Assembly: GCF_963853765.1 (NCBI RefSeq)
Contig: NC_088860.1
Location: 47,802,001-47,866,000 of the forward strand
Direction of reading: 5' to 3'
Length of the DNA: 64,000 bases
Origin: Magallana gigas
Taxonomy: Eukaryota
Under the pieces are notes generated by a model, which had not been told where the DNA came from, did not search any database, and worked only from the letters and a program-made list of their open reading frames with translations. Within the stretch, counting starts at the first letter, position 1, and each line of letters starts with the position of its first letter. A program made the translations under genes and the position numbers. Below, one piece after another: positions 13,135 through 64,000 of the stretch.

Positions 13135-13170
13135 GGTCAGGGAACCCTTGTAACTATAGGGGAACTAAAC

Positions 13171-15868: not shown

Positions 15869-16565
15869 TGTAAAATTATTATTTTCAAATGGTTCATAAT
15901 ACTGAAAGTAATTTTTAAGCTTCAAGAGATCCTGGTTGGACAGTGCATTCTTTTTATTGCATTCATTTTTGCTTTTAAATAAGGGTGTATGTCTGTTCTC
16001 CATTCTAATGTAGCCAATAGAAGGGTGGTTATGGGGTGTTTAGCACCTCTTTAAACAATAGAATGTTTTGATACTTAGAACAACACTGTGTACTGTTGAC
16101 ACATTCTTCACAGTAAAGAATTCATTGAATGTACATGTACAACTAATTGGAGTACATTTTTCAAATGATTTGAATTTCTTAATAAGACACTCTTAAAATG
16201 TTATGAAATTGTGTTGATATAGCTAGTTATATTGACAATTTAAGAATGGATTTTTAATTTTTTTTAACATGCTTAATCATACAACTAAAATATTTTTATC
16301 TCAAGAATTATTTTTCTTCTTTAAAAACAATTTTTAATCAAATACAGTTATTCAATTCATCACGATTTTACAAATAAACATGCATTGAAAAGCATAGTAA
16401 TGCAAAGTAATGCCATGTAATGCCAGCATTATACTAGATTTTGGAAGTAATGCATTACATTACCATTACTTGTAATGCTTAAATTACACATTACTAGCAT
16501 TACTTTGAAAATATGTAACGAATTGCAATGCATTACCATTACATTTAGCATTACCCCAAACCCTG
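15369..16565 (+). mobile_element. Non-autonomous TIR element (CAGG...CCTG), 7-bp TSD GTGTCCT
   Basis: Imperfect TIRs CAGGCTTGGGG / CCCCAAACCCTG, subterminal (CATTA)-like repeats, TSD at 15362-15368 and 16566-16572. Confidence 0.75.
15815..15866 (+). repeat. (AG)n microsatellite
   Basis: Perfect AG run; a shorter allele lies near 40375-40410. Confidence 0.95.
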
Positions 16566-37314: not shown

Positions 37315-37372
<58 letters not shown>

Positions 37373-38620: not shown

Positions 38621-38656
38621 GGTCAGGGAACCCTTGTAACTATAGGGGAACTAAAC

Positions 38657-40547: not shown

Positions 40548-41048
40548 CAATGCCGCTCTATGAAATACAATCTTGTGTTTACGGGGCTAGGTGGGGAAAC
40601 AAAGGAAGAGGACACGGAGGGCAAATTGCGGGACTTCATATATTTTGAATTAGGAGTTGACTGGAGAGTGGAGTTCTGTAACGTACATCGGTTCGGTCGA
40701 TTTCAACAGAACAGGAGCAGACCCATCGTTGCGAAATTCCTTTATGAAAATGACCGAGTAAGTGTTCTAGAAAGAGCCTATAAATTAAAAGGAAGTGGAT
40801 TCGGCATAAATGAACAATTCCCGCACGCTATTGAGGAAAGACGAAAACAACTCTATCCTATCATGAGGGAACTCAGAAGTCAAGGAAAGAGAACCAAACT
40901 AGTGAAAGATCGTCTGTATGTGAACGGAAAGTTATATAAAGGTCCAGAAAGCAGAGACGAACACCACACAGGAACTCCAGATAATAGACAACAACGCCAC
41001 GCAGCCACACACGCGCAACACATAACTCGATCGACAGGAGCACAATGA
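40548..41048 (+). CDS. LINE ORF1 C-terminal part (L1-type RRM/CTD-like), 5'-truncated
   Basis: RSMKYNLVFTGL...VHRFG...RPIVAKF...GINEQFP...DRLYVNG. The ORF-track segment upstream of 40548 is host DNA. Confidence 0.85.
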   Translation, partial: QCRSMKYNLVFTGLGGETKEEDTEGKLRDFIYFELGVDWRVEFCNVHRFGRFQQNRSRPIVAKFLYENDRVSVLERAYKLKGSGFGINEQFPHAIEERRKQLYPIMRELRSQGKRTKLVKDRLYVNGKLYKGPESRDEHHTGTPDNRQQRHAATHAQHITRSTGAQ

Positions 41049-41156
41049 CGATCCAACGAAACAGCAGGACGGCATGAAAGACAGACTACACATCCAGCGA
41101 CCGCGTACAGTACAGTCACCTCCAACACGTACACTGGACATTCTACCGGTCACTAG

Positions 41157-44100
41157 GACAGGCTCGGGAGTAGGAGTGAGGATTTATCTATCATCGCATG
41201 GAATGTTAATAAAGGCCTAAAAACTAAACTAGATAATCTAGACTTTGTAGAACTTATAATAAAATATGATATAATTATTTTATTAGAATGTTGGATAAAT
41301 CAAGATGATTGTTTCGATCTACATGGATATAATAATTACAGTTTTCATAGAACAAATGGAAAAGGAGGTGGCATTGTTATCTTTATTAAAAACATGTTAG
41401 ACATGAACATATCAATTGTAGACCAATTTTGTAGTACTGTTGTGTGGATACGTTTTGAACTTAAAAGTAAACAAGGTACACCCATTTTTGTAGCCGCATG
41501 TTATATACCCCCAGAAAGTAGTGTGTTTTATAAAAAAGAGAAAGTTGATATTTTTGATTATTTAGAAGATTCTTATTGTAGTTTTCACCGTAAAGGTCAT
41601 ATATATGTGGTAGGGGACTTTAATGCCCGGTGTGGAACTTTGGATGATTTTATTTCTGATGACAAGCTTGAAAAGTCAGTAGAAAAGAATTTACAGTCAT
41701 TTGTAGACTATGACAATAATGCCAATGTATACTGTAGACATAATGCAGACAGAGGAGTTAACAACTTTGGTAAAAAGTTGATTAATTTGTGTAGAACTAC
41801 AGGATTGAAAATTGTTAATGGAAGAAATGAAAATGACTATAATGGTAATATCACTTTTTATAACGCCAATGGAACTAGTACGATAGATTATTTACTTACA
41901 GATGTGTACAATTTTGACAATATTACTTATTTTTCAACAGGTATTTTTAACTGCTTCTCCGATCATGCACCTGTTTCTTTTTGTATTAAAACTAACTACA
42001 TAGATGGGGGATCAAAAGCCTTGTGCTGTGCAAACACTTCACAAGGGAACGGGAGTATAAATCAATGTACTTCAGTTAGATGGAAAGAAGGTGCTGATTT
42101 AGAAGCTACGTGGTCAATAAGTGAACACTATGATTTATTTTTGTCATATGTAGAAAACCAGTTATATACACAAGAAGATGTTGACAATTGTGTAGCGAAT
42201 TTTAGTAAGACACTCTGTAAAATAATGAAGCCCTATTGTATTATCACTGGTGGACTGGCAAATACGGTTATAGATGCAGAACGTTGTATTGATAAACCCT
42301 GGTTTAATGATATTTGTAAATCAAAATACCGTGATTATAGAGGTGCACTGCATAATTTTAATGTATTCAAGTCGGATGTAAATAGAATTGTACTTTGTGC
42401 AAAGAAAAAGGTTTATAAAAAAACAGTCCAGAAGTTTAAGCATAACTACGAACGATATCAGGGAGACAGAATGGAATACCTAAGAAAATGTAACCCAAAG
42501 CAGTTTTTTCGTTTATTTAAGAATAATAAAAAAATCAGTTGTGATGTAAGTGCCAAAGAGTTTTTTGAGCATTTTAAGAACCTTTTTGAAAATGTAAAAA
42601 CTACTACTTATGACAACACTAGTGATGATTATGAAATATTACCATGTTATAAAGAGTTAGATGTGTGTATTTCAGAATTAGAGGTTGAGAAAGCTATTTT
42701 GAAACTGAAAAGTAACAAGAGTAATGCTGAAGATGGTGTAATTAATGAATTTTTTTCGAAATGTAAAGAGGTTATGATACCTATTTTGTGTAGACTTTTT
42801 AATAATATATTCGACTCTGGTTTTTACCCAGACAATTGGTCAAAAGGTTGTATTGTACCAATTTTTAAAAAAGGTGAAATGCAAGATTTAAACAATTATA
42901 GAGGTATCACATTAGTTAGTTGCTTGGCAAAACTATTTACAAGTATTATAAATACTAGATTGTTAGAATGGGACCAGAGATATAATATCATTACTGATGC
43001 TCAGTTTGGTTTTAAACCAGGGGTAGGTACAATTGATGCCATATTTGTACTACAGAATCTCATAAGTAGAACTTTAAAAAACAAAAAAAGATTGTACTGT
43101 TGTTTTGTGGATTATACAAAGGCCTTTGACTTAATTGATAGATCAAAACTATGGTATAAATTGCAAATGGAGGGTTTTGGAGGAAAATTATTACGTATTA
43201 TTAAGTCTCTATATAAAAATGTAAGAGCATGTGTTAAACATAAAGGTACATTTACAGAAACATTTAGAATCTCAGCTGGAGTTCTACAAGGTGAAATATT
43301 GTCTCCATTATTATTTTCAATGTACCTTAATGATTTTGAAAGATATTTTATAAATAGTAATTGTACATCAATTGAATTACAAATGATTAATATGTTTTTA
43401 ATTATGTATGCTGATGATACTGTCCTTTTGGCAGAATCGCCCGAGGGTTTACAGGATATGCTGAACACATTGCACAGATATACTGATGAATGGAACTTAT
43501 CTGTTAATGTACAAAAAACCAAAATTGTAATTTTTAGAAACGGAAAATGTGTTAAAGATAATGAAAAATGGGAATACAATAGCAAATACGTAGAAGTAGT
43601 GAATCAATTTAACTATCTTGGTATGTTGTTTAACTACAATGGTAAATTTTTATCTACACAAAAGCACTGTGCAGCACAGGGAAATAAAGCAATGTTCAGC
43701 ATATCTAGTAAAATGAAAGATTTGAATTTTAATGTTGAAACTCAATTGAATGTTTTTGATACTTATGTAAAAAGTGTACTTAGTTATGGTGCTGAAATTT
43801 GGGGATTCCATAAAGGTCAAGATGTAGAAAAAGTCCATATAAATTTTTGTAAGAAGGTTTTGGGTGTCAGAAAAAATACTTGCAACAGTGCAGTTTATTA
43901 TGAAGTAGGTAGATTTCCATTAGAGATTTTCAGGAAACAAAAAATTTTTAAATACTGGTTTAAATTAAGAAACAGTAAAAACTGTATTTTAAAAGCATGC
44001 TACGAAGACATGGTGAAAAATAATGACATATGGATTTCAAATATTAGGAAAGAATTGTCCATCTTAGGCTTAGCCGATTTATATCAACCAGTACTATGAA

Positions 44101-44587
44101 AGAGTCTGTTATTTTAGATATTATATTTAAAAGAATGTGTGATGTCTTTAAACAAAAAGTTGTTAACGATATAAGCAATGCATCAAAATGTATATTATAT
44201 AAACATGTTGTTGATCATTTTTGTTTACAAGTTTACCTAAAGAAACCAATTCATGTAAAATATCGTAAATTAATTACACGCTTACAGTTGTCCTCACATG
44301 ACTTAAAGATTGAAACAGGAAGGTATGATAATTTAACACGTGATTGTCGAAAATGTGAATCTTGCAACTTAAATGTAATTGAAGATGAGTTCCATTTTTT
44401 ACTTATTTGTCCATCACTTTGTAGTTTAAGAGATAAGTATATTAAAAAATACTACTCCCGAAAACCAAGTGTCTATAAAGTTATACAGTTATTATCTACC
44501 TCTAATACTAAAGAACTGTGTAATTTAGGTAAATATTTATATTATGCAAACAAGCAACGAACTCTCCATGTGAATTATCCAAATTGA
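41157..44587 (+). pseudogene. LINE ORF2 (APE endonuclease, RT, C-terminal Cys/His motif) with one frameshift near 44090
   Basis: IIAWNV, LLECW, GDFNAR, STIDY and SDHAPV; QGEILSP and YADD; second piece SSHDLKIETGRY...CESC...EDEFHFLLICP at 44096-44587. The frame is open from 41157, upstream of the first ATG at 41394. Confidence 0.88.
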
Positions 44588-45900
44588 TTATGTACACTTT
44601 GTTTTTCTTACTGTTTATTTAATATGTATATGTTCATATGTATAACCTATGAGACATTTGTCTCTTGGAATAAAGAACTTGAATTCTAATGTAGCCAATC
44701 GAAGGGTGGTTATGGGGTGTTTAGCACCTCTTTAAACAATAGAATGTTTTGATACTTAGAACAACACTGTGTACTGTTGACACATTCTTCACAGTAAAGA
44801 ATTCATTGAATGTACATGTACAACTAATTGGAGTACATTTTTCAAATGATTTGAATTTCTTAATAAGACACTCTTAAAATGTTATGAAATTGTGTTGATA
44901 TAGCTAGTTATATTGACAATTTAAGAATGGATTTTTAATTTTTTTTAACATGCTTAATCATACAACTAAAATATTTTTATCTCAAGAATTATTTTTCTTC
45001 TTTAAAAACAATTTTTAATCAAATACAGTTATTCAATTCATCACGATTTTACAAATAAACATGCATTGAAAAGCATAGTAATGCAAAGTAATGCCATGTA
45101 ATGCCAGCATTATACTAGATTTTGGAAGTAATGCATTACATTACCATTACGTGTAATGCTTAAATTACACATTACTAGCATTACTTTGAAAATATGTAAC
45201 GAATTGCAATGCATTACCATTACATTTAGCATTACCCCAAACCCTGGTGTCCTGGGATTTGATTCTTCTGAGTTGTGGAGTCAGTAAATACGATCTATTT
45301 TCTATGTTCAATGTAATCTGATTAAAGTACAATCCACTAAAGTGCAAGAGATATGATAATGACCCATTCCAGTTCATGTATTGACGTAAGAATGAACTGA
45401 GTTGAGTTTCGTCATAATATAAAACTTATTAGTAAGACACTTTTCAATATACGACTTGCATTACAGATTGACTCCGAGCCAGGACCGATGTAACGACGAA
45501 AAGTGACCCCCGTAGAATATTGACCTGCGGGTTAAATTTCTACGGAGAAAACTGATCCAGAGTCAGTGTGTTCTATGACAAGTAGGGTCCTTTTTCTACA
45601 GTAGAAAACCATTCAAGACCTGTAGATCTGCGACCCCCACACGTTGAGAGCTGACCCCCATAGAATTTGACCTCACTTATAAACTACATAGAAATTATAG
45701 AAATTAAAGGCGATACGTTTAGCATTCATGTTTTGTAAGTGTCCGGGTGGTGGGGGGGGGGGGGGGGGTATGCGCCTCCCGTTTTACCCTTTTACATATA
45801 TAACATCACTTTGAAGTTTTTATCTTGAAGAACTTGTCAGCTTGCCTTGTGGTGCCCCTTCGCTAAGCCTTTTCAGGGTCCCCCCGGGGTATATTACAAA

Positions 45901-47661
45901 ATGGCGACAGCCAGCGGTGGTCGCTTAGACGAGGATCCAAACTTTTCCTCAATTAATGCCTACAGAGATTGCGACAATGCCCTACAATGTGCACCAGTCA
46001 ACGACAGCAGAAGTAATCTTCTAACCGATGTTCTAAATGTTGAGGAATCTGTGCTGAATTGCACATTATTGCAGTTGTTTACATCTGAGGGCGTGAGTAC
46101 TTCTTACGATAACAATGTCTACGATTTGCCAAACTCGCAATTGCCTATTATCGAGAACGAAGGTTTATCGAACGCTGAGTATATCAATCTTATTGATTCC
46201 CAACTTCAGAATTTACCAAAAGAAATTTATGTTAATAAATTACTTGAACTTCTTGATGACGATGAGAACAAAATCATGTGGTATAGAAACGTTCTTTACT
46301 CCCGGGCAAAAACCCTCCCCGACTGCCCTCCTGGCAGACTTAAAAGTAGAAGAACTACTAAAAGTAACAACAGTACTGAAAGATATGCAAGAGACTGTCA
46401 CACTTTATACATGTTTACCCAAGGGGAAAAATCGGGATTGAATGTAATTTTTGACAAAAGCAAAACATTACCAGTCCCTTCCGATACATTCAAGCATGAA
46501 ACCTCAAAAATTGAGTTAGATGAATTTTGATCATTGCTGCAATTATTACAACAGCGACTATCCGAATTAGAAGAAAATATTCAATCCAAAGACAAAACAA
46601 TTCATATCCTGACCGCTGACCTCAAATCACTTCACTTGAAACATGACCAACTATCTACAGAACATGAGCGTTTCAAAGCTGAGGCGAACTGTAGGTTCAC
46701 TAAATGCGACTGCTTTCAGAAATTGGCAAAAGAGAAATTCCAAAAAGCCGAAACCGATTTGATGGAGTTTGAATCTTTCAAATCAAAAACTAATGACGAA
46801 CTCAAACGTGTAAATAAAGTTACTCAAAACTTTCAAAATAAAGTCAACGCACTCAGCCCAAATAAATCATACGCCAGTGCTGTAGTCGAACAAACTGCCA
46901 ATGAACGGTCCATTAAAGAAAACTCTACAACATCTCGTGGAAATGACGCCATAGTCGATGGAATTCGTTCTATACGCGACTCAATGGATAATCCGTCTAA
47001 ACCCAAGACGTCTGATACCGATGGTAAAACTTGTGCCGATAGAGATGTTGCTGCGTGTGCACCGGTGGCCAACGATTCACCCCGTCGGGTTCCTCAAGAA
47101 GCCAGACACAATGCACATTCAATCGACACCTCTTCATTCAACTCGCCACGCTCCAATAGTCATACTATTACGACAGCTGGTCTCAAATACGCAAAAAATA
47201 GAGACTCTTCTCCAGAGAGCATAACGCCCAAAAGATCAGTGAATTACGATGGTGTTTTGTGTCGCGTAACTGTTGACGAAAAACCACGCTCAGTTCAAAA
47301 TACCGTATCTAAACAAACAAAAGATGTCTTTCTCGGAGTTACATACAAGAAGGCAGCCCGATATTATTTGTCCGGAATAAACCATGAATCAACCTACGAA
47401 GGCATCAAAACTTATGTTGAAAGCAAAGGGGTTAAAATCTCGTACTTAACCCTATTCAAACCAAAAGGGCGCTACTCAGTCCGGACAGCCAAAATCAACG
47501 TCTCGCCAAATTGCTCACAAACTGTAGAAGCACCGGGATTCTGGCCCGACGGTGTCCACTGCCGCAAGTGGTATAGTGAGCGCGAGTGGGATTCTCGTTG
47601 TGACCAAAGGTACCCGCAGACAGACGACGAACGGGCATATCAAGACAGTCATTACCATTAA
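45901..47661 (+). pseudogene. ORF1 of unit 1, broken by TGA at 46528-46530
   Basis: In-frame pieces; unit 2 has CGA (Arg) at this codon. Confidence 0.9.
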
Positions 47662-47668
47662 ACCAATT

Positions 47669-50600
47669 ATGTCATTTTGTTCAAAACATGTTATTTCATT
47701 TTGGTATTTTCTGTCTCAAATTATGGTCATTCTTATGTCATGGAACGTCCGTGGTATCTTCTCATCCACGCTGTGTCTCTCTTCGCTGTTAGACAGAGAG
47801 AAATGTGACATTGCTGTACTCTCGGAACACAAACTTAAACAAGAAACAAGAGGTTACCTTGATACAATACATACAGACTTTTTAAGTTTCGTCAAATTTG
47901 AGGATGAAAAATCTACTCATACAAACGTACTCTTCGCCGGCAGAGGCGGCGTAGCTATAATGTATAGGAAATGTTTAGCTTTCTCAATACGGGAAATTCC
48001 ATGCTTCGACTCAAACCGCATTATTGGAATTGAGCTAAAGACATGCAACGGATGCGTGTACATATTGGGTGCTTACTTACCTTCTGACAATAATGTTGAC
48101 AATTACGCGTACGAATTAAATTTACTTGAAAATTTATACAATCACTACTCGAATTATGGAAAAGTTATAATAGCGGGTGACCTAAATGGCAGTCTAGTCG
48201 ATTCAACCGGAACTAATGAACGGAAGTCAGAAATTCTGTCGTCGTTTGCATTTAGAAAAAACCTTTGTACTCCTTACATAGACTTTAAAACTTGTGGTGA
48301 AAACTATACTTTCACATATAAAAAAACAACCCTGGACTACGTCTTATTTGACAAATCTGTTTTAACATTGCTGCATCGTTACCTAACATACGTAGAGGGC
48401 TCATTCTCACTTACATCTGACCACCTTCCGATAATTGCCACATTTAATCTACGCGCCATGCAATGCCACCACCTGAAGACTTCCCAGACAAAACTTTTAG
48501 CATGGCACAAAGCTACCGCTGAAAATATTGCGGAGTATAGGAACAAAATTGACGAACATCTCTCCGCTGCGTTTGGTGAAGAACTTCGCAATGAAACAGA
48601 CATTTCAGTGTATATCGACAATTTAACCAAAATTCTGCATAAGTGCGCTCACGACTGTATTCCATCTTCGTCCTTCAACCCTTTCACCCGACCTGGCTGG
48701 ACTTCTTCTGTAAAGGAGCTCCATAAAATTGAAAGAGCCAAACGGCGCATATGGATAGGACTAGGAAGACCTCGAGGGATGGAATTTACGTCATACCTAG
48801 AATATAAAAAGGCCAAGAGAAATTTCCGGAGGGCCCTTGAAGAAGCACACGAACGCTACATGTGTGATGTCTACAAAGAAATCGACGAAGCCGCAGAAGT
48901 AGACATACGTCTATTCTGGAGACTGACAAAGAGACGAAAACCCAGAACTTCGCGCATTTACCCCGAAATCCAGGATGAGGGAGGAACAACCCATACAGAT
49001 CCGGAAGGGGTGGCAGAAACTTTTGCCAACTATTACCAAAGTATATATACCCCCTTAGAAGATGTTCAGTTCGATCCGGATTTCAAGTCACAGATAGATC
49101 TCGAGATGAAACATATTACTGCAACTTGTGAAAGTGATATACACGACTTTCCCGGGGGCTGCATTACCACAAAAGAACTAAATGCAATAATCAGCTGTTT
49201 GAAGCTCCGCAAGGCACCTGGCAATGACTCAATTACTAACGAACATATCGTTCACGGGGGGAAATCACTTGTTCGATGCCTCGTTAATTTATATAACGCC
49301 ATCGCGTCTTTGGGGAAAATACCTCTTCAGTGGTAACAAGGGCTTATTGTGCCTTTGTACAAGGGAGGATCGAAGCCCAAAAATATGTGCGACAGTTACA
49401 GACCTGTAGCCTTACTACCTTGTTTATTTAAAATTTTTGAAAAAATCATTCTGTCTCGCATATCTGAGTTTTTAACATTAAGTGCTCATTTTCCCAATGC
49501 TCAGCAGCAAGGGTTTCAAAAATCGTTAAGCTGCTTAACTGCATCTTTTAATTTGCAGGAAACAATTTTGCACAACACAGAACAGGGAAACAATGTATAT
49601 GTAAGCTTTTTAGATTCTAGCAAAGCATTCGATACAGTGTGGAGAGAAGGGCTTATGTTCAAACTGTATAATATTGGTGTTACTGGTAAAATATGGACAC
49701 TTATTAACAATTGTCATCAACATACTACAAGCTCTGTCATTGTAAACCAGATAAAATCAAAATGGTTTAGTGTTAATCAAGGTGTCAGACAAGGAGGTGT
49801 TCTGTCCACTTTTTTGTATCTTGTTTTTATTAACGACCTCCTAATTGAATTAGAGGACAATAGTAAAAATATTGGTGTACTAAATGTTCCCAGCAGTTGT
49901 CCATCCCTAGCAGACGATATTTCATGTATTAGCTTATCTCCAATAGGCCTTCAACTACTTTTAAACACTGCTTTTATGTATTCAAACAAATGGCGATTTC
50001 GATTTAATGCTACCAAATCATGTGTGTTAGTATTTTGTCCGAAACATTGTACATTTAAAGAATCATTTCAATGGTTTTTAGGTCAATGTTTAATTCCTAC
50101 AGCAGACAAATACAATCATTTAGGTATTATTGTTGACAACAGATGTAAACAATCTGCTAGGATAACGGAAGCATGCAACAAGGGACGCAAATCGTACTTT
50201 GCGCTCTCTGACATAGGATCGCAATTTCTCAACCCAATGACACTCTCGCATTTATACAAGACGGTTGTGTTACCGTCCGCCCTATATGGTTGTGAACTAT
50301 GGAATTGCATATCTTCCTCTGATCTTCAGAAGCTAAACGTGTTTCAACACTTTGTTTGTAAAAACTCGTTAAACCTACTAAAATCTTGTAGATCTGACAT
50401 TTGTGAATCACTCTTTGGTGTTTTACCGATAGAAGCGGAAATCGACACAAGGAAATTATTATTCCTAGGAAGACTCTGTCGCTTACACTCCACTACCCTC
50501 ACAAAGAAAATATTTGCGATACGTCTGTATTCGTTCATTTATAACTTAGCACTGAAGCAAAAAGGATTTATACCTGAAATTTTTGATATTATCTAAAAGT

Positions 50601-51178
50601 ACGAACTCACAGACCACTTAAAACAGTGGCTACATGACGGTTCATTCCCTGGAAAAATAACATGGAAAAAAATTGTGAGGACCGCCGTTTCAACTCTATA
50701 CAAGTCACAGCGTCAAACTCGTATATCAAATGATTCTGACTTCTTAACTTTTCGTCTGATCTTCGACGACATAGATCCCTCATCACTCTGGAAACTCCCC
50801 AGAAACTGTTACGAGATCAACCTGTGTAAATTTGTATGCAAACTCATCTCCAACACCCGCGAGTGCATCAACGTATACACTTGTCTACTGTGCCAAAGGC
50901 CCTTCAAAAACTTAATTGCGCATGCTTCGTGCACATGTGCAGCAACCGAAACCATCCGAGATGTATGGTGGGAGAAGGTCATCAACTTATACGACATAAG
51001 ACTGTCGGCGGAACTGTGTGGCCTTGCCGAGGACGACTTCCTCGTTATTCTTTTGGGGCGACGAACTGATACACCGCTTGAAAGCTCAGCAACAGCATCT
51101 TTTCGCATGCTCAATTACAGGCTCCTAAAAAACACTGTAGCCTTATACAATAAGGCATTATCATTTCAATGTATGTGA
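47669..51178 (+). pseudogene. ORF2 of unit 1 with two in-frame TAA stops (49334-49336, 50594-50596)
   Basis: MSWNVRG, LSEH, GDLNG, LDY and SDHLP; AFDTVW, QGGVLS and LADD; C-terminal CLLC...HASCTC. All three ORF-track pieces share one frame. Confidence 0.92.
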
Positions 51179-51233
51179 CAATATGATTTATTTACTGGCA
51201 TGCCCATGCTCTTTTGTATATATGTTCGGATAT

Positions 51234-51268
<35 letters not shown>

Positions 51269-52567
51269 TTCATTTATTTACTGATGTTTTGTTTGTAATA
51301 ATAATTTGATATGTTATAATTTGATCATCATGATCCTCTACGGAGGGAAATAAATTATGAATGAATGAAAAAGGGTGGTTATGGGGTGTTTAGCACCTCT
51401 TTAAACAATAGAATGTTTTGATACTTAGAACAACACTGTGTACTGTTGACACATTCTTCACAGTAAAGAATTCATTGAATGTACATGTACAACTAATTGG
51501 AGTACATTTTTCAAATGATTTGAATTTCTTAATAAGACACTCTTAAAATGTTATGAAATTGTGTTGATATAGCTAGTTATATTGACAATTTAAGAATGGA
51601 TTTTTAATTTTTTTTAACATGCTTAATCATACAACTAAAATATTTTTATCTCAAGAATTATTTTTCTTCTTTAAAAACAATTTTTAATCAAATACAGTTA
51701 TTCAATTCATCACGATTTTACAAATAAACATGCATTGAAAAGCATAGTAATGCAAAGTAATGCCATGTAATGCCAGCATTATACTAGATTTTGGAAGTAA
51801 TGCATTACATTACCATTACGTGTAATGCTTAAATTACACATTACTAGCATTACTTTGAAAATATGTAACGAATTGCAATGCATTACCATTACATTTAGCA
51901 TTACCCCAAACCCTGGTGTCCTGGGATTTGATTCTTCTGAGTTGTGGAGTCAGTAAATACGATCTATTTTCTATGTTCAATGTAATCTGATTAAAGTACA
52001 ATCCACTAAAGTGCAAGAGATATGATAATGACCCATTCCAGTTCATGTATTGACGTAAGAATGAACTGAGTTGAGTTTCGTCATAATATAAAACTTATTA
52101 GTAAGACACTTTTCAATATACGACTTGCATTACAGATTGACTCCGAGCCAGGACCGATGTAACGACGAAAAGTGACCCCCGTAGAATATTGACCTGCGGG
52201 TTAAATTTCTACGGAGAAAACTGATCCAGAGTCAGTGTGTTCTATGACAAGTAGGGTCCTTTTTCTACAGTAGAAAACCATTCAAGACCTGTAGATCTGC
52301 GACCCCCACACGTTGAGAGCTGACCCCCATAGAATTTGACCTCACTTATAAACTACATAGAAATTATAGAAATTAAAGGCGATACGTTTAGCATTCATGT
52401 TTTGTAAGTGTCCGGGTGGTGGGGGGGGGGGGGGGTATGCGCCTCCCGTTTTACCCTTTTACATATATAACATCACTTTGAAGTTTTTATCTTGAAGAAC
52501 TTGTCAGCTTGCCTTGTGGTGCCCCTTCGCTAAGCCTTGTCAGGGTCCCCCCGGGGTATATTACAAA

Positions 52568-54328
52568 ATGGCGACAGCCAGCGGTGGTCGCTTAGACGAG
52601 GATCCAAACTTTTCCTCAATTAATGCCTACAGAGATTGCGACAATGCCCTACAATGTGCACCAGTCAACGACAGCAGAAGTAATCTTCTAACCGATGTTC
52701 TAAATGTTGAGGAATCTGTGCTGAATTGCACATTATTGCAGTTGTTTACATCTGAGGGCGTGAGTACTTCTTACGATAACAATGTCTACGATTTGCCAAA
52801 CTCGCAAATGCCTATTATCGAGAACGAAGGTTTATCGAACGCTGAGTATATCAATCTTATTGATTCCCAACTTCAGAATTTACCAAAAGAAATTTGTGTT
52901 AATAAATTACTTGAACTTCTTGATGACGATGAGAACAAAATCATGTGGTATAGAAACGTTCTTTACTCCCGGGCAAAAACCCTCCCCGACTGCCCTCCTG
53001 GCAGACTTAAAAGTAGAAGAACTACTAAAAGTAACAACAGTACTGAAAGATATGCAAGAGACTGTCACACTTTATACATGTTTACCCAAGGGGAAAAATC
53101 GGGATTGAATGTAATTTTTGACAAAAGCAAAACATTACCAGTCCCTTCCGATACATTCAAGCATGAAACCTCAAAAATTGAGTTAGTTGAATTTCGATCA
53201 TTGCTGCAATTATTACAACAGCGACTATCCGAATTAGAAGAAAATATTCAATCCAAAGACAAAACAATTCATATCCTGACCGCTGACCTCAAATCACTTC
53301 ACTTGAAACATGACCAACTATCTACAGAACATGAGCGTTTCAAAGCTGAGGCGAACTGTAGGTTCACTAAATGCGACTGCTTTCAGAAATTGGCAAAAGA
53401 GAAATTCCAAAAAGCCGAAACCGATTTGATGGAGTTTGAATCTTTCAAATCAAAAACTAATGACGAACTCAAACGTGTAAATAAAGTTACTCAAAACTTT
53501 CAAAATAAAGTCAACGCACTCAGCCCAAATAAATCATACGCCAGTGCTGTAGTCGAACAAACTGCCAATGAACGGTCCATTAAAGAAAACTCTACAACAT
53601 CTCGTGGAAATGACGCCATAGTCGATGGAATTCGTTCTATACGCGACTCAATGGATAATCCGTCTAAACCCAAGACGTCTGATACCGATGGTAAAACTTG
53701 TGCCGATAGAGATGTTGCTGCGTGTGCACCGGTGGCCAACGATTCACCCCGTCGGGTTCCTCAAGAAGCCAGACACAATGCACATTCAATCGACACCTCT
53801 TCATTCAACTCGCCACGCTCCAATAGTCATACTATTACGACAGCTGGTCTCAAATACGCAAAAAATAGAGACTCTTCTCCAGAGAGCATAACGCCCAAAA
53901 GATCAGTGAATTACGATGGTGTTTTGTGTCGCGTAACTGTTGACGAAAAACCACGCTCAGTTCAAAATACCGTATCTAAACAAACAAAAGATGTCTTTCT
54001 CGGAGTTACATACAAGAAGGCAGCCCGATATTATTTGTCCGGAATAAACCATGAATCAACCTACGAAGGCATCAAAACTTATGTTGAAAGCAAAGGGGTT
54101 AAAATCTCGTACTTAACCCTATTCAAACCAAAAGGGCGCTACTCAGTCCGGACAGCCAAAATCAACGTCTCGCCAAATTGCTCACAAACTGTAGAAGCAC
54201 CGGGATTCTGGCCCGACGGTGTCCACTGCCGCAAGTGGTATAGTGAGCGCGAGTGGGATTCTCGTTGTGACCAAAGGTACCCGCAGACAGACGACGAACG
54301 GGCATATCAAGACAGTCATTACCATTAA
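52568..54328 (+). CDS. Intact LINE ORF1 (~586 aa; coiled coil plus C-terminal RRM-like domain)
   Basis: ATG at 52568; heptad region LLQLLQQRLSELEE; RRM-like YYLSGI...TAKINV...FWPDGVHCRKW. Confidence 0.85.
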   Translation: MATASGGRLDEDPNFSSINAYRDCDNALQCAPVNDSRSNLLTDVLNVEESVLNCTLLQLFTSEGVSTSYDNNVYDLPNSQMPIIENEGLSNAEYINLIDSQLQNLPKEICVNKLLELLDDDENKIMWYRNVLYSRAKTLPDCPPGRLKSRRTTKSNNSTERYARDCHTLYMFTQGEKSGLNVIFDKSKTLPVPSDTFKHETSKIELVEFRSLLQLLQQRLSELEENIQSKDKTIHILTADLKSLHLKHDQLSTEHERFKAEANCRFTKCDCFQKLAKEKFQKAETDLMEFESFKSKTNDELKRVNKVTQNFQNKVNALSPNKSYASAVVEQTANERSIKENSTTSRGNDAIVDGIRSIRDSMDNPSKPKTSDTDGKTCADRDVAACAPVANDSPRRVPQEARHNAHSIDTSSFNSPRSNSHTITTAGLKYAKNRDSSPESITPKRSVNYDGVLCRVTVDEKPRSVQNTVSKQTKDVFLGVTYKKAARYYLSGINHESTYEGIKTYVESKGVKISYLTLFKPKGRYSVRTAKINVSPNCSQTVEAPGFWPDGVHCRKWYSEREWDSRCDQRYPQTDDERAYQDSHYH

Positions 54329-54335
54329 ACCAATT

Positions 54336-57300
54336 ATGTCATTTTGTTCAAAACATGTTATTTCATTTTGGTATTTTCTGTCTCAAATTATGGTCATTCT
54401 TATGTCATGGAACGTCCGTGGTATCTTCTCATCCACGCTGTGTCTCTCTTCGCTGTTAGACAGAGAGAAATGTGACATTGCTGTACTCTCGGAACACAAA
54501 CTTAAACAAGAAACAAGAGGTTACCTTGATACAATACATACAGACTTTTTAAGTTTCGTCAAATTTGAGGATGAAAAATCTACTCATACAAACGTACTCT
54601 TCGCCGGCAGAGGCGGCGTAGCTATAATGTATAGGAAATGTTTAGCTTTCTCAATACGGGAAATTCCATGCTTCGACTCAAACCGCATTATTGGAATTGA
54701 GCTAAAGACATGCAACGGATGCGTGTACATATTGGGTGCTTACTTACCTTCTGACAATAATGTTGACAATTACGCGTACGAATTAAATTTACTTGAAAAT
54801 TTATACAATCACTACTCGAATTATGGAAAAGTTATAATAGCGGGTGACCTAAATGGCAGTCTAGTCGATTCAACCGGAACTAATGAACGGAAGTCAGAAA
54901 TTCTGTCGTCGTTTGCATTTAGAAAAAACCTTTGTACTCCTTACATAGACTTTAAAACTTGTGGTGAAAACTATACTTTCACATATAAAAAAACAACCCT
55001 GGACTACGTCTTATTTGACAAATCTGTTTTAACATTGCTGCATCGTTACCTAACATACGTAGAGGGCTCATTCTCACTTACATCTGACCACCTTCCGATA
55101 ATTGCCACATTTAATCTACGCGCCATGCAATGCCACCACCTGAAGACTTCCCAGACAAAACTTTTAGCATGGCACAAAGCTACCGCTGAAAATATTGCGG
55201 AGTATAGGAACAAAATTGACGAACATCTCTCCGCTGCGTTTGGTGAAGAACTTCGCAATGAAACAGACATTTCAGTGTATATCGACAATTTAACCAAAAT
55301 TCTGCATAAGTGCGCTCACGACTGTATTCCATCTTCGTCCTTCAACCCTTTCACCCGACCTGGCTGGACTTCTTCTGTAAAGGAGCTCCATAAAATTGAA
55401 AGAGCCAAACGGCGCATATGGATAGGACTAGGAAGACCTCGAGGGATGGAATTTACGTCATACCTAGAATATAAAAAGGCCAAGAGAAATTTCCGGAGGG
55501 CCCTTGAAGAAGCACACGAACGCTACATGTGTGATGTCTACAAAGAAATCGACGAAGCCGCAGAAGTAGACATACGTCTATTCTGGAGACTGACAAAGAG
55601 ACGAAAACCCAGAACTTCGCGCATTTACCCCGAAATCCAGGATGAGGGAGGAACAACCCATACAGATCCGGAAGGGGTGGCAGAAACTTTTGCCAACTAT
55701 TACCAAAGTATATATACCCCCTTAGAAGATGTTCAGTTCGATCCGGATTTCAAGTCACAGATAGATCTCGAGATGAAACATATTACTGCAACTTGTGAAA
55801 GTGATATACACGACTTTCCCGGGGGCTGCATTACCACAAAAGAACTAAATGCAATAATCAGCTGTTTGAAGCTCCGCAAGGCACCTGGCAATGACTCAAT
55901 TACTAACGAACATATCGTTCACGGGGGGAAATCACTTGTTCGATGCCTCGTTAATTTATATAACGCCATCGCGTCTTTGGGGAAAATACCTCTTCAGTGG
56001 TAACAAGGGCTTATTGTGCCTTTGTACAAGGGAGGATCGAAGCCCAAAAATATGTGCGACAGTTACAGACCTGTAGCCTTACTACCTTGTTTATTTAAAA
56101 TTTTTGAAAAAATCATTCTGTCTCGCATATCTGAGTTTTTAACATTAAGTGCTCATTTTCCCAATGCTCAGCAGCAAGGGTTTCAAAAATCGTTAAGCTG
56201 CTTAACTGCATCTTTTAATTTGCAGGAAACAATTTTGCACAACACAGAACAGGGAAACAATGTATATGTAAGCTTTTTAGATTCTAGCAAAGCATTCGAT
56301 ACAGTGTGGAGAGAAGGGCTTATGTTCAAACTGTATAATATTGGTGTTACTGGTAAAATATGGACACTTATTAACAATTGTCATCAACATACTACAAGCT
56401 CTGTCATTGTAAACCAGATAAAATCAAAATGGTTTAGTGTTAATCAAGGTGTCAGACAAGGAGGTGTTCTGTCCACTTTTTTGTATCTTGTTTTTATTAA
56501 CGACCTCCTAATTGAATTAGAGGACAATAGTAAAAATATTGGTGTACTAAATGTTCCCAGCAGTTGTCCATCCCTAGCAGACGATATTTCATGTATTAGC
56601 TTATCTCCAATAGGCCTTCAACTACTTTTAAACACTGCTTTTATGTATTCAAACAAATGGCGATTTCGATTTAATGCTACCAAATCATGTGTGTTAGTAT
56701 TTTGTCCGAAACATTGTACATTTAAAGAATCATTTCAATGGTTTTTAGGTCAATGTTTAATTCCTACAGCAGACAAATACAATCATTTAGGTATTATTGT
56801 TGACAACAGATGTAAACAATCTGCTAGGATAACGGAAGCATGCAACAAGGGACGCAAATCGTACTTTGCGCTCTCTGACATAGGATCGCAATTTCTCAAC
56901 CCAATGACACTCTCGCATTTATACAAGACGGTTGTGTTACCGTCCGCCCTATATGGTTGTGAACTATGGAATTGCATATCTTCCTCTGATCTTCAGAAGC
57001 TAAACGTGTTTCAACACTTTGTTTGTAAAAACTCGTTAAACCTACTAAAATCTTGTAGATCTGACATTTGTGAATCACTCTTTGGTGTTTTACCGATAGA
57101 AGCGGAAATCGACACAAGGAAATTATTATTCCTAGGAAGACTCTGTCGCTTACACTCCACTACCCTCACAAAGAAAATATTTGCGATACGTCTGTATTCG
57201 TTCATTTATAACTTAGCACTGAAGCAAAAAGGATTTATACCTGAAATTTTTGATATTATCTAAAAGTACGAACTCACAGACCACTTAAAACAGTGGCTAC

Positions 57301-57845
57301 ATGACGGTTCATTCCCTGGAAAAATAACATGGAAAAAAATTGTGAGGACCGCCGTTTCAACTCTATACAAGTCACAGCGTCAAACTCGTATATCAAATGA
57401 TTCTGACTTCTTAACTTTTCGTCTGATCTTCGACGACATAGATCCCTCATCACTCTGGAAACTCCCCAGAAACTGTTACGAGATCAACCTGTGTAAATTT
57501 GTATGCAAACTCATCTCCAACACCCGCGAGTGCATCAACGTATACACTTGTCTACTGTGCCAAAGGCCCTTCAAAAACTTAATTGCGCATGCTTCGTGCA
57601 CATGTGCAGCAACCGAAACCATCCGAGATGTATGGTGGGAGAAGGTCATCAACTTATACGACATAAGACTGTCGGCGGAACTGTGTGGCCTTGCCGAGGA
57701 CGACTTCCTCGTTATTCTTTTGGGGCGACGAACTGATACACCGCTTGAAAGCTCAGCAACAGCATCTTTTCGCATGCTCAATTACAGGCTCCTAAAAAAC
57801 ACTGTAGCCTTATACAATAAGGCATTATCATTTCAATGTATGTGA
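54336..57845 (+). pseudogene. ORF2 of unit 2 with the same two TAA stops (56001-56003, 57261-57263)
   Basis: Translations identical to unit 1. Confidence 0.92.
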
Positions 57846-57900
57846 CAATATGATTTATTTACTGGCATGCCCATGCTCTTTTGTATATATGTTCGGATAT

Positions 57901-57931
<31 letters not shown>

Positions 57932-59225
57932 TTCATTTATTTACTGATGTTTTGTTTGTAATAATAATTTGATATGTTATAATTTGATCATCATGATCCT
58001 CTACGGAGGGAAATAAATTATGAATGAATGAAAAAGGGTGGTTATGGGGTGTTTAGCACCTCTTTAAACAATAGAATGTTTTGATACTTAGAACAACACT
58101 GTGTACTGTTGACACATTCTTCACAGTAAAGAATTCATTGAATGTACATGTACAACTAATTGGAGTACATTTTTCAAATGATTTGAATTTCTTAATAAGA
58201 CACTCTTAAAATGTTATGAAATTGTGTTGATATAGCTAGTTATATTGACAATTTAAGAATGGATTTTTAATTTTTTTTAACATGCTTAATCATACAACTA
58301 AAATATTTTTATCTCAAGAATTATTTTTCTTCTTTAAAAACAATTTTTAATCAAATACAGTTATTCAATTCATCACGATTTTACAAATAAACATGCATTG
58401 AAAAGCATAGTAATGCAAAGTAATGCCATGTAATGCCAGCATTATACTAGATTTTGGAAGTAATGCATTACATTACCATTACGTGTAATGCTTAAATTAC
58501 ACATTACTAGCATTACTTTGAAAATATGTAACGAATTGCAATGCATTACCATTACATTTAGCATTACCCCAAACCCTGGTGTCCTGGGATTTGATTCTTC
58601 TGAGTTGTGGAGTCAGTAAATACGATCTATTTTCTATGTTCAATGTAATCTGATTAAAGTACAATCCACTAAAGTGCAAGAGATATGATAATGACCCATT
58701 CCAGTTCATGTATTGACGTAAGAATGAACTGAGTTGAGTTTCGTCATAATATAAAACTTATTAGTAAGACACTTTTCAATATACGACTTGCATTACAGAT
58801 TGACTCCGAGCCAGGACCGATGTAACGACGAAAAGTGACCCCCGTAGAATATTGACCTGCGGGTTAAATTTCTACGGAGAAAACTGATCCAGAGTCAGTG
58901 TGTTCTATGACAAGTAGGGTCCTTTAGTAGAAAACCATTCAAGACCTGTAGATCTGCGACCCCCACACGTTGAGAGCTGACCCCCATAGAATTTGACCTC
59001 ACTTATAAACTACATAGAAATTATAGAAATTAAAGGCGATACGTTTAGCATTCATGTTTTGTAAGTGTCCGGGTGGTGGGGGGGGGGGGGGGGTATGCGC
59101 CTCCCGTTTTACCCTTTTACATATATAACATCACTTTGAAGTTTTTATCTTGAAGAACTTGTCAGCTTGCCTTGTGGTGCCCCTTCGCTAAGCCTTTTCA
59201 GGGTCCCCCCGGGGTATATTACAAA

Positions 59226-60986
59226 ATGGCGACAGCCAGCGGTGGTCGCTTAGACGAGGATCCAAACTTTTCCTCAATTAATGCCTACAGAGATTGCGAC
59301 AATGCCCTACAATGTGCACCAGTCAACGACAGCAGAAGTAATCTTCTAACCGATGTTCTAAATGTTGAGGAATCTGTGCTGAATTGCACATTATTGCAGT
59401 TGTTTACATCTGAGGGCGTGAGTACTTCTTACGATAACAATGTCTACGATTTGCCAAACTCGCAATTGCCTATTATCGAGAACGAAGGTTTATCGAACGC
59501 TGAGTATATCAATCTTATTGATTCCCAACTTCAGAATTTACCAAAAGAAATTTATGTTAATAAATTACTTGAACTTCTTGATGACGATGAGAACAAAATC
59601 ATGTGGTATAGAAACGTTCTTTACTCCCGGGCAAAAACCCTCCCCGACTGCCCTCCTGGCAGACTTAAAAGTAGAAGAACTACTAAAAGTAACAACAGTA
59701 CTGAAAGATATGCAAGAGACTGTCACACTTTATACATGTTTACCCAAGGGGAAAAATCGGGATTGAATGTAATTTTTGACAAAAGCAAAACATTACCAGT
59801 CCCTTCCGATACATTCAAGCATGAAACCTCAAAAATTGAGTTAGATGAATTTTGATCATTGCTGCAATTATTACAACAGCGACTATCCGAATTAGAAGAA
59901 AATATTCAATCCAAAGACAAAACAATTCATATCCTGACCGCTGACCTCAAATCACTTCACTTGAAACATGACCAACTATCTACAGAACATGAGCGTTTCA
60001 AAGCTGAGGCGAACTGTAGGTTCACTAAATGCGACTGCTTTCAGAAATTGGCAAAAGAGAAATTCCAAAAAGCCGAAACCGATTTGATGGAGTTTGAATC
60101 TTTCAAATCAAAAACTAATGACGAACTCAAACGTGTAAATAAAGTTACTCAAAACTTTCAAAATAAAGTCAACGCACTCAGCCCAAATAAATCATACGCC
60201 AGTGCTGTAGTCGAACAAACTGCCAATGAACGGTCCATTAAAGAAAACTCTACAACATCTCGTGGAAATGACGCCATAGTCGATGGAATTCGTTCTATAC
60301 GCGACTCAATGGATAATCCGTCTAAACCCAAGACGTCTGATACCGATGGTAAAACTTGTGCCGATAGAGATGTTGCTGCGTGTGCACCGGTGGCCAACGA
60401 TTCACCCCGTCGGGTTCCTCAAGAAGCCAGACACAATGCACATTCAATCGACACCTCTTCATTCAACTCGCCACGCTCCAATAGTCATACTATTACGACA
60501 GCTGGTCTCAAATACGCAAAAAATAGAGACTCTTCTCCAGAGAGCATAACGCCCAAAAGATCAGTGAATTACGATGGTGTTTTGTGTCGCGTAACTGTTG
60601 ACGAAAAACCACGCTCAGTTCAAAATACCGTATCTAAACAAACAAAAGATGTCTTTCTCGGAGTTACATACAAGAAGGCAGCCCGATATTATTTGTCCGG
60701 AATAAACCATGAATCAACCTACGAAGGCATCAAAACTTATGTTGAAAGCAAAGGGGTTAAAATCTCGTACTTAACCCTATTCAAACCAAAAGGGCGCTAC
60801 TCAGTCCGGACAGCCAAAATCAACGTCTCGCCAAATTGCTCACAAACTGTAGAAGCACCGGGATTCTGGCCCGACGGTGTCCACTGCCGCAAGTGGTATA
60901 GTGAGCGCGAGTGGGATTCTCGTTGTGACCAAAGGTACCCGCAGACAGACGACGAACGGGCATATCAAGACAGTCATTACCATTAA
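59226..60986 (+). pseudogene. ORF1 of unit 3, broken by TGA at 59853-59855
   Basis: Same allele as unit 1. Confidence 0.9.
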
Positions 60987-60993
60987 ACCAATT

Positions 60994-63900
60994 ATGTCAT
61001 TTTGTTCAAAACATGTTATTTCATTTTGGTATTTTCTGTCTCAAATTATGGTCATTCTTATGTCATGGAACGTCCGTGGTATCTTCTCATCCACGCTGTG
61101 TCTCTCTTCGCTGTTAGACAGAGAGAAATGTGACATTGCTGTACTCTCGGAACACAAACTTAAACAAGAAACAAGAGGTTACCTTGATACAATACATACA
61201 GACTTTTTAAGTTTCGTCAAATTTGAGGATGAAAAATCTACTCATACAAACGTACTCTTCGCCGGCAGAGGCGGCGTAGCTATAATGTATAGGAAATGTT
61301 TAGCTTTCTCAATACGGGAAATTCCATGCTTCGACTCAAACCGCATTATTGGAATTGAGCTAAAGACATGCAACGGATGCGTGTACATATTGGGTGCTTA
61401 CTTACCTTCTGACAATAATGTTGACAATTACGCGTACGAATTAAATTTACTTGAAAATTTATACAATCACTACTCGAATTATGGAAAAGTTATAATAGCG
61501 GGTGACCTAAATGGCAGTCTAGTCGATTCAACCGGAACTAATGAACGGAAGTCAGAAATTCTGTCGTCGTTTGCATTTAGAAAAAACCTTTGTACTCCTT
61601 ACATAGACTTTAAAACTTGTGGTGAAAACTATACTTTCACATATAAAAAAACAACCCTGGACTACGTCTTATTTGACAAATCTGTTTTAACATTGCTGCA
61701 TCGTTACCTAACATACGTAGAGGGCTCATTCTCACTTACATCTGACCACCTTCCGATAATTGCCACATTTAATCTACGCGCCATGCAATGCCACCACCTG
61801 AAGACTTCCCAGACAAAACTTTTAGCATGGCACAAAGCTACCGCTGAAAATATTGCGGAGTATAGGAACAAAATTGACGAACATCTCTCCGCTGCGTTTG
61901 GTGAAGAACTTCGCAATGAAACAGACATTTCAGTGTATATCGACAATTTAACCAAAATTCTGCATAAGTGCGCTCACGACTGTATTCCATCTTCGTCCTT
62001 CAACCCTTTCACCCGACCTGGCTGGACTTCTTCTGTAAAGGAGCTCCATAAAATTGAAAGAGCCAAACGGCGCATATGGATAGGACTAGGAAGACCTCGA
62101 GGGATGGAATTTACGTCATACCTAGAATATAAAAAGGCCAAGAGAAATTTCCGGAGGGCCCTTGAAGAAGCACACGAACGCTACATGTGTGATGTCTACA
62201 AAGAAATCGACGAAGCCGCAGAAGTAGACATACGTCTATTCTGGAGACTGACAAAGAGACGAAAACCCAGAACTTCGCGCATTTACCCCGAAATCCAGGA
62301 TGAGGGAGGAACAACCCATACAGATCCGGAAGGGGTGGCAGAAACTTTTGCCAACTATTACCAAAGTATATATACCCCCTTAGAAGATGTTCAGTTCGAT
62401 CCGGATTTCAAGTCACAGATAGATCTCGAGATGAAACATATTACTGCAACTTGTGAAAGTGATATACACGACTTTCCCGGGGGCTGCATTACCACAAAAG
62501 AACTAAATGCAATAATCAGCTGTTTGAAGCTCCGCAAGGCACCTGGCAATGACTCAATTACTAACGAACATATCGTTCACGGGGGGAAATCACTTGTTCG
62601 ATGCCTCGTTAATTTATATAACGCCATCGCGTCTTTGGGGAAAATACCTCTTCAGTGGTAACAAGGGCTTATTGTGCCTTTGTACAAGGGAGGATCGAAG
62701 CCCAAAAATATGTGCGACAGTTACAGACCTGTAGCCTTACTACCTTGTTTATTTAAAATTTTTGAAAAAATCATTCTGTCTCGCATATCTGAGTTTTTAA
62801 CATTAAGTGCTCATTTTCCCAATGCTCAGCAGCAAGGGTTTCAAAAATCGTTAAGCTGCTTAACTGCATCTTTTAATTTGCAGGAAACAATTTTGCACAA
62901 CACAGAACAGGGAAACAATGTATATGTAAGCTTTTTAGATTCTAGCAAAGCATTCGATACAGTGTGGAGAGAAGGGCTTATGTTCAAACTGTATAATATT
63001 GGTGTTACTGGTAAAATATGGACACTTATTAACAATTGTCATCAACATACTACAAGCTCTGTCATTGTAAACCAGATAAAATCAAAATGGTTTAGTGTTA
63101 ATCAAGGTGTCAGACAAGGAGGTGTTCTGTCCACTTTTTTGTATCTTGTTTTTATTAACGACCTCCTAATTGAATTAGAGGACAATAGTAAAAATATTGG
63201 TGTACTAAATGTTCCCAGCAGTTGTCCATCCCTAGCAGACGATATTTCATGTATTAGCTTATCTCCAATAGGCCTTCAACTACTTTTAAACACTGCTTTT
63301 ATGTATTCAAACAAATGGCGATTTCGATTTAATGCTACCAAATCATGTGTGTTAGTATTTTGTCCGAAACATTGTACATTTAAAGAATCATTTCAATGGT
63401 TTTTAGGTCAATGTTTAATTCCTACAGCAGACAAATACAATCATTTAGGTATTATTGTTGACAACAGATGTAAACAATCTGCTAGGATAACGGAAGCATG
63501 CAACAAGGGACGCAAATCGTACTTTGCGCTCTCTGACATAGGATCGCAATTTCTCAACCCAATGACACTCTCGCATTTATACAAGACGGTTGTGTTACCG
63601 TCCGCCCTATATGGTTGTGAACTATGGAATTGCATATCTTCCTCTGATCTTCAGAAGCTAAACGTGTTTCAACACTTTGTTTGTAAAAACTCGTTAAACC
63701 TACTAAAATCTTGTAGATCTGACATTTGTGAATCACTCTTTGGTGTTTTACCGATAGAAGCGGAAATCGACACAAGGAAATTATTATTCCTAGGAAGACT
63801 CTGTCGCTTACACTCCACTACCCTCACAAAGAAAATATTTGCGATACGTCTGTATTCGTTCATTTATAACTTAGCACTGAAGCAAAAAGGATTTATACCT

Positions 63901-64000
63901 GAAATTTTTGATATTATCTAAAAGTACGAACTCACAGACCACTTAAAACAGTGGCTACATGACGGTTCATTCCCTGGAAAAATAACATGGAAAAAAATTG
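60994..64000 (+). pseudogene. ORF2 of unit 3 (partial) with the same TAA stops (62659-62661, 63919-63921)
   Basis: Translations identical to units 1 and 2 over the visible length. Confidence 0.92.

Follow-up and report, generated by a model that had tools for sequence, protein, structure and literature searches.

A short tandem array of a Proto2-like LINE in Magallana gigas and the kilobase-scale flanking duplications of its clade

The window, a 64,000-nucleotide stretch of Magallana gigas DNA (contig NC_088860.1; here G000:C8:47802001-47866000, with extended coordinates beyond 64000 continuing the window numbering), ends in a tandem array in which a long interspersed nuclear element (LINE; L) alternates with a spacer of host DNA (S). 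This alternation, reported in a first-pass annotation made from the sequence alone, is real and extends past the window to four LINEs (5.47 kb) and five spacers (1.19 kb), the whole array reading S-L-S-L-S-L-S-L-S over 27.9 kb. Units of 6.66 kb begin at 44702, 51371 and 58034 and are 99.8% identical to one another by self-comparison. All boundaries between LINE and spacer fall at the (TGAA)n tail of the LINE, as had been annotated, and both LINE ends are exact. The term macrosatellite, also used at first pass, fits loosely at best, the four 6.66-kb units in the assembly being a short array; a depth of 20 at the tail/S junction versus 3 in the unique right flank of contigs from sequencing run X17 hints at several units and is not a copy number. 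The components of the array and the corresponding empty site are:

44702..45894 (+): S1, 1,193 bp, first copy of the presumptive duplicated target; host DNA, partly dispersed repeats
45895..51370 (+): L1, full-length LINE of type La with a AAAATGGCG head and an AATAAA + (TGAA)n tail
51371..52561 (+): S2, spacer of 1,191 bp
52562..58033 (+): L2, LINE of type Lb; ORF1 open, ORF2 with both common stops
58034..59219 (+): S3, spacer of 1,186 bp with a private 6-bp deletion
59220..64000, on to extended 64699 (+): L3, LINE of type La
extended 64700-65889 (+): S4, spacer outside the window
extended 65890-71361 (+): L4, LINE of type Lb; ORF1 open; outside the window
extended 71362-72554 (+): S5, terminal spacer, then GCATTATGATG..., equal to window 17196-17386
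16021..17386 (+): paralogous empty site, S (16021-17195) continuing directly into the post-S5 sequence

The direct repeat adjoins both ends of the element and is single at the paralogous empty site. The annotation had predicted beforehand that, were the spacer a giant target-site duplication (TSD), a final spacer would be followed by the sequence from 17196 onwards, and S5 does run into 17196-17386. Both host junctions (X/S1 on the left and S5/Y on the right) are intact and LINE-free, with the 19 bp preceding S1 equal to the paralog save for one base. The spacer begins midway through a dispersed repeat, called a MITE at first pass; among 40 listed matches the majority continue across 16021, at 79-91% identity, and thus the spacer boundary is not the end of an element. 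The segment 16021-17195 had been called single and LINE-free, and while it is indeed LINE-free it is not a lone copy, being part of an older duplicated block with Mab-21 and B-box/NHL genes, which is ~24 kb long in copy A and 94-98% identical where it flanks S. It therefore serves as a proxy for the empty site that is paralogous rather than allelic. Transduction of 3' sequence was rejected, as matches to the S-L junction are confined to the array and no tail is present at S5/Y; dispersed copies with the same spacer had been named at first pass as potential counter-evidence, and no dispersed copy has either S-L junction. Our reading, which we hold to be very probable, is that the spacer is a duplication made by the insertion and later expanded by unequal exchange.

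The LINEs of the array are 5,472-5,480 bp long and contain two open reading frames (ORFs), which in L1 lie as follows:

45901..47661 (+): ORF1, with 586 codons counted from Met and a coiled coil; no Pfam family reached the cut-off
47528..51178 (+): ORF2 frame, apurinic/apyrimidinic endonuclease (APE) and reverse transcriptase (RT), with two nonsense codons

The two in-frame TAA codons in ORF2 (49334-36 and 50594-96 in L1), first noted in the units within the window, are common to all four units, and neither is present in the copy of this family on C9. With changes polarised on the C9 copy and the paralog, L1 and L3 (La) share two derived changes, including an ORF1 stop (46528-30 in L1), and L2 and L4 (Lb), in which ORF1 is open, share two other derived changes plus one in the preceding spacer. 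This La-Lb-La-Lb alternation indicates that the array is a doubled dimer. The right edge of the array (the 3' part of L4 and the last 21 bp of S5) carries private or ancestral alleles, and the 2 differences between S1 and S5 in 1,190 positions both lie within these 21 bp. Because the stops are shared and the unit types alternate, amplification at the DNA level is supported, which agrees with the earlier exclusion of autonomous retrotransposition; the shared stops also rule out independent repeated insertion of the units. Identical boundaries would be expected if S-L-S had been made at insertion but had expanded through a looped-out S-L circle, rolling-circle copying and reinsertion instead of unequal crossover, and rolling-circle tandems are a recognised outcome (PMC5932611). 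We consider this route unlikely, however, as the La-Lb-La-Lb order would need a dimer that diverged before it doubled, and the alleles at the right edge are as in crossover-homogenised arrays.

The annotation under-called the phenomenon: in the examined genome, insertions of this clade routinely result in long duplications. From the best DNA and RT matches in the scanned 564-Mb, 29-contig assembly we took 81 loci. Eight belong to a sister lineage and 73 to the main clade; of the latter, 60 were kept after leaving out 13 without a recognisable tail, two of which (L054 and L078) still show flanking repeats of 1,045 and 378 bp. A 70% repeat at L010 is satellite and was excluded from the count, and L019 and L066, which share flanks and are both among the 60, are one duplicated insertion. 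Within the 10-kb locus, 28 of the 60 tailed copies have a repeat of 116-2,140 bp that begins at the tail. A search farther upstream (10-20 kb) at 19 loci without a repeat, 12 of them carried to 20 kb, found an interrupted match at 4, bringing the total to 32/60. Median repeat length is 857 bp (29 lengths, from the 28 census loci and the window), and 27 of the 28 census repeats end at the 5' end of the element, several once an insertion is allowed for. The clade of a neighbouring LINE served as control:

40548..44682 (+): unrelated 5'-truncated LINE (control clade), ending 19 bp ahead of S1, with a 5-6-bp duplication; outside the unit

This revealed no abutting long repeat in any of the 19 evaluable control loci (20 fetched), which show short matches of 3-8 nt, versus 28/60 in the array clade (Fisher p=7e-5). 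The family of the control LINE is young and shows short duplications and more than 10 near-identical copies; the 3' insertion point of this LINE and that of the array LINE (44702) are 19 bp apart and both lie inside one dispersed repeat.

The repeats are different DNA at each locus, with just four short cross-matches (44-163 bp) among 31, and so are not long terminal repeats (LTRs). An LTR retrotransposon or terminal-repeat retrotransposon in miniature was accordingly rejected, ORF2 moreover being of APE-RT type. Long repeats are found in most sub-families of the RT tree and also flank 5'-truncated copies (L014, L015, L023, L031, L033 and others), and the sole other full-length member of the family (C9, 97%) has its own 762-bp repeat adjoining both ends. 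Divergence between repeat copies ranges from 0 to 3.5% and tends to be greater in copies whose longest ORF is shorter (Spearman -0.45, p=0.02, n=27). Several copies with an intact ORF2 have repeats that are 99.95-100% identical; L033, L038, L044 and L046, with ORF2 frames of 1167-1183 aa, show 0-1 substitutions across 674-2,106 bp of repeat. In one sub-family (L044 and L046) the upstream duplication is separated from the 5' end of the element by a ~30-nt homopolymer, which is of A in one copy and of T in the other (oriented ~2400-2430). L019 and L066 (G000:C1:73.44 and 73.54 Mb) are the same insertion with identical flanks, 97 kb apart, and likely represent a segmental duplication.

A second array, S(857)-L-S-L-S, lies on another chromosome (L055; C7:3.51 Mb), where a common 5' truncation point in both units rules out independent insertions. 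At G000:C4:12.03-12.05 Mb two decayed clade copies (L086 and L134) stand in tandem with a 290-bp segment present three times; this is possibly an old third array, which was excluded from the array count as its junctions are unclear. A clear repeat was found in 1/7 of the sister lineage, namely L067 (G000:C4:5.61 Mb), a full-length copy with 31% ORF2 identity, a (TGTC)n tail and a 201-bp abutting repeat, and the trait may therefore reach deeper in the tree. Relatives in other animals (79 metagenome loci and 38 loci from contaminants of metagenome-assembled genomes, MAGs) showed no flanking repeat at the tail, although their contigs are short, contain little flank and are uninformative. Several GTDB bacterial or archaeal bins (e.g. 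Sedimenticola sp. MAGs; L226-L255) hold many LINE-bearing contigs, probably through contamination by the host animal. Exon duplication was not supported: 26 duplicated segments yielded 81 open frames (62 aa or longer), none of which matched a Pfam family at cut-off, and one weak low-complexity match was seen.

These data bear on the alternative that an ordinary insertion with a short TSD was followed by an unrelated tandem duplication whose breakpoint fell by chance at the LINE end. The region is prone to duplication, as the older gene-cluster duplication attests, and the element has more changes than separate S1 from S5. The host junctions are nonetheless intact and LINE-free with exact LINE ends, no remnant of a short TSD was found, and ~30 loci share this arrangement, some of them with an intact ORF2 and repeats that are 100% identical, versus 0/19 controls; the alternative is largely refuted and in our view very unlikely. 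A property of host repair, such as weak nucleotide-excision repair (NER) in the germline, could also be the cause of long duplications in place of the element, and NER-deficient human cells do yield TSDs of L1 with a median of 1,495 bp (PMC5223499). The 0/19 long repeats in a second clade of young APE LINEs from this genome make such a host effect extremely improbable, though the clades may differ in timing or cell type.

Independent sequencing runs, of which 6 of the 24 listed were examined for array junctions, argue against an error of assembly. X15 and X17 each have contigs that cross the tail/S5 junction, with 31 or more letters to either side. X15 and X1 continue from the end of S into the head of the LINE (S/L-5'), and both ORF2 stops are matched exactly in X15 and X17. 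At the four ORF1 sites X15 is ancestral throughout, a haplotype that no assembled unit shows, and X17 contigs have the same states. Among the listed rows, X18 shows the C9 tail junction only. All raw reads of X23 and X24 (~3x read) have a letter other than the array allele at L127:2143, which suggests that these two lack the array insertion. With both junctions present in other runs, the array is not an assembly artefact, and the single-unit artefact raised as a caveat at first pass is not borne out. Merging of heterozygous insertions with the empty haplotype into false duplications and extra units has in its favour that no read covers the whole array and that joining of haplotypes might account for part of the near-perfect dimer repeat. 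As a general account it is barely credible, since the divergence between repeats (0-3.5%) tracks the decay of the element, the boundaries are exact, long repeats are never seen at control LINEs of equal youth, and the tail/S and S/L junctions occur in runs of other studies, including the X15 haplotype absent from the assembled units. Only the exact count of four, which rests on the assembly with no record spanning the array, is still exposed to it.

Several observations weigh against an insertion-made duplication as the origin of the spacer or against its generality. The array lineage has accumulated 27 changes in 2,952 ORF2 sites (0.9%) versus 2 in 1,190 between S1 and S5, with 11 of the 27 synonymous against a neutral expectation of 25%. 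Either homogenisation within the array or insertion of an already damaged template may account for this conflict of clocks; at the C9 copy there is no strong conflict, with a repeat divergence of 3.2% and lineage changes of 1.5%. In addition, 28 of the 60 tailed copies lack a long repeat, no short TSD was found in 17 such copies scanned (best match 4-6 nt), and in both of two tested the DNA after the tail has no second close copy in the genome, which together point to a bimodal outcome. Selection of loci by best match under-samples short truncated copies, and the trait is shown in one genome only. Lastly, the start of S in the window (AATCG|AAGG) would need a short A slip to match the nick consensus.

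That consensus derives from 27 loci at which the -4..-1 context of the repeat start is YY-rich and endonuclease-like, with T at base -2 in 21/27 (p=2e-6) and C in 17 and T in 10 at base -1, the latter partly constrained by the need to differ from the tail. At the other end, the 5' joins show an overlap of 0-9 nt in 8 of 10 evaluable copies and inserts of 11 or 32 nt in the remaining 2, a further 3 rows having been left out for poor reference or coordinates. We propose that insertion begins when the APE endonuclease nicks a preferred site (T-T-T-Y| on the top strand, complementary to the GAA of the tail) and RT is primed on the short-repeat tail; the site bias is observed, and the enzymology would follow known target-primed reverse transcription (TPRT). 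The 5' end of the element would then be joined 0.1-2 kb along, through microhomology of 0-9 nt or a short unmatched insert, with duplication of the intervening DNA. The product of this step is seen at many loci. As to its route, we lean marginally towards a join coupled to replication or repair, without a dedicated nearby second nick, over two element-made nicks, because the repeats vary widely in length, short TSDs are lacking, no duplication is present at half of the copies, and break-induced replication has been proposed for 1-10-kb duplications at human L1. The duplication likely arises at the moment of insertion, as is indirectly suggested by the intact copies with 100% identical repeats among the standing insertions analysed. 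S-L-S would subsequently act as an LTR element with host-made LTRs, unequal crossover giving a dimer whose two units diverge at five sites before the dimer doubles; the pattern of this step is observed in the array, and crossover is its putative mechanism. The predicted reciprocal product is a solo S, in other words a scarless loss of the LINE.

Proto2, first described in Repbase Reports, is characterised by two ORFs, APE and RT domains, absence of RNase H and of a restriction-like endonuclease (RLE), and a length of ~5.5 kb. The array element has two ORFs, APE and RT, no detected RNase H or RLE, and a length of ~5.5 kb; RVT_1 and Exo_endo_phos are the only Pfam families at cut-off in 12/12 aligned relatives, and a Cys/His motif at the ORF2 C-terminus was recognised by eye only. 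A tree of RTs (quick method, without classified reference RTs) places the array element in a well-supported clade (99) with bivalve proteins, separate from the control clade. Similarity to the consensus heads labelled LINE/Proto2 in PMC10294476 supplementary file 25 is clear-looking as judged by eye: in ORF1, M.edulis_260, S.constricta_53 and P.maximus_26 resemble P0001 residues ~90-160 and M.yessoensis_32 resembles ~490-565, and in ORF2 R.philippinarum_113 resembles the start. The same source notes discordance between Proto2 and RTE-X. Based on these features we call the array LINE Proto2-like and its clade likely Proto2. An Atlas search with ORF1 returned only unnamed eukaryotic clusters of low recognition, the nearest structures in PDB were L1 ORF2p and R2, which do not test the clade, and exact-motif searches of a bivalve transposable-element (TE) supplement (12/33 files; sequences of ~400 letters) gave no match. 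Membership of Dualen/RandI was rejected, as Pfam found only APE and no RLE and ORF2 ends ~200 aa past the RT segment; this call is Pfam-based, and a diverged RLE is possible.

Kilobase TSDs are already known from Dualen and human L1, as are TE tandems formed through LTR recombination or double insertion. The closest parallel is Dualen-4b_cRei of Chlamydomonas reinhardtii, in which more than half of new insertions have duplications of >50 bp with a median of 900 bp (PMC9977147), so that its TSD-like flanks are of nearly equal size and frequency to ours. It differs in belonging to a green alga, in having been followed in laboratory mutation-accumulation lines, and in possessing both RLE and APE, which its authors proposed as a possible cause (PMC9977147); in the array clade only APE was detected, the insertions are standing ones in an animal genome, and arrays have grown from the repeats. 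Human L1 is likewise an APE-RT element with kilobase TSDs, which in NER-deficient cells span 5 bp-5.3 kb (median 1,495 bp) and for which recombinational loss of the insertion was proposed (PMC5223499), while in cancer 1-10-kb tandem duplications were read as large TSDs and ascribed to break-induced replication (bioRxiv 10.1101/2024.12.14.628481). Large TSDs nevertheless make up at most 10% of HeLa events and are common only in mutant cells (PMC5223499), whereas in the oyster they accompany about half of inherited copies and are clade-specific within the host. The rotifer R9 LINE, with a 126-bp TSD as cited in PMC9977147, is similar in that an animal LINE family is marked by a long TSD, but by its cited title it is specific to ribosomal DNA, and its one reported length is about sevenfold below the median of the oyster clade. 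Bivalve Proto2 elements have two ORFs, a length of ~5.5 kb (mean 5,675 bp) and AAGATGGCG-type heads (PMC10294476), resembling the array LINE in ORF count, length and head type and, by eye, in ORF1 and ORF2 N-terminal segments; no TSD property is stated in the parts of that paper covered. In LTR-retrotransposon arrays and double-insertion TE tandems, flanking direct repeats seed unequal exchange (PMC5932611), much as the direct repeats flanking the oyster element appear to seed its array. That paper holds that non-LTR elements supply no substrate of their own for unequal exchange and need a double insertion, whereas here a single insertion appears to provide a kilobase substrate copied from the host. 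In the literature searched there was no report of long TSDs for Proto2, of an APE-only animal LINE in which they are usual, or of LINE-seeded arrays of this kind, though Repbase Reports and most PMC10294476 supplements lay outside this coverage and could hold a prior statement.

Placement of the second nick and completion of insertion are a long-standing open step of LINE retrotransposition. Two APE-only clades in one genome, one making kilobase duplications in about half of its copies and the other never, turn this into a problem testable by domain swaps, and they weaken the Dualen proposal that such duplications depend on two endonucleases. The array also suggests how a tandem array could follow in one step from the insertion of a non-LTR element, a route that the covered literature denies to such elements. 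Predicted precise loss of LINEs would bias estimates of copy number and age, and TE callers that seek TSDs of at most 30 bp would miss or mis-split such events. In its broadest form, to which we give somewhat better than even chances, our hypothesis is that Proto2 is an animal LINE clade without a short staggered second nick, whose insertions routinely copy 0.1-2 kb into LTR-like flanks that aid amplification and scarless self-erasure. Throughout the clade, insertions would then be generating kilobase duplications and copy-number variants that have gone unrecognised as such in bivalves and other marine animals. Proto2 would also constitute a natural separation-of-function system for the placement of second-strand cleavage in TPRT.

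Elsewhere in the window, the tandem-duplicated B-box/NHL and Mab-21 block is represented at 11467-13164, 36923-38650, 19860-21666 and 26903-28944 and at L006, and the array lies ~6 kb upstream of one B-box/NHL frame. We take the Mab-21 genes of the block to belong to the cGAS-like receptor family. Arrays of a 166-bp repeat (7 copies; 2618-3836) and a 146-bp repeat (4.5 copies; 14236-14891) have (GACA/CGTC)n flanks and presumably resemble Helentron-like carriers. A young Copia-like LTR element occupies 5200-9990 on the minus strand, with Pfam rve and RVT_2 in one 1,427-aa frame; its very short 133-bp LTRs (TG...CA) are 100% identical, it is bordered by a 5-bp duplication (GACTG), and it is missing from the paralog at ~35450.

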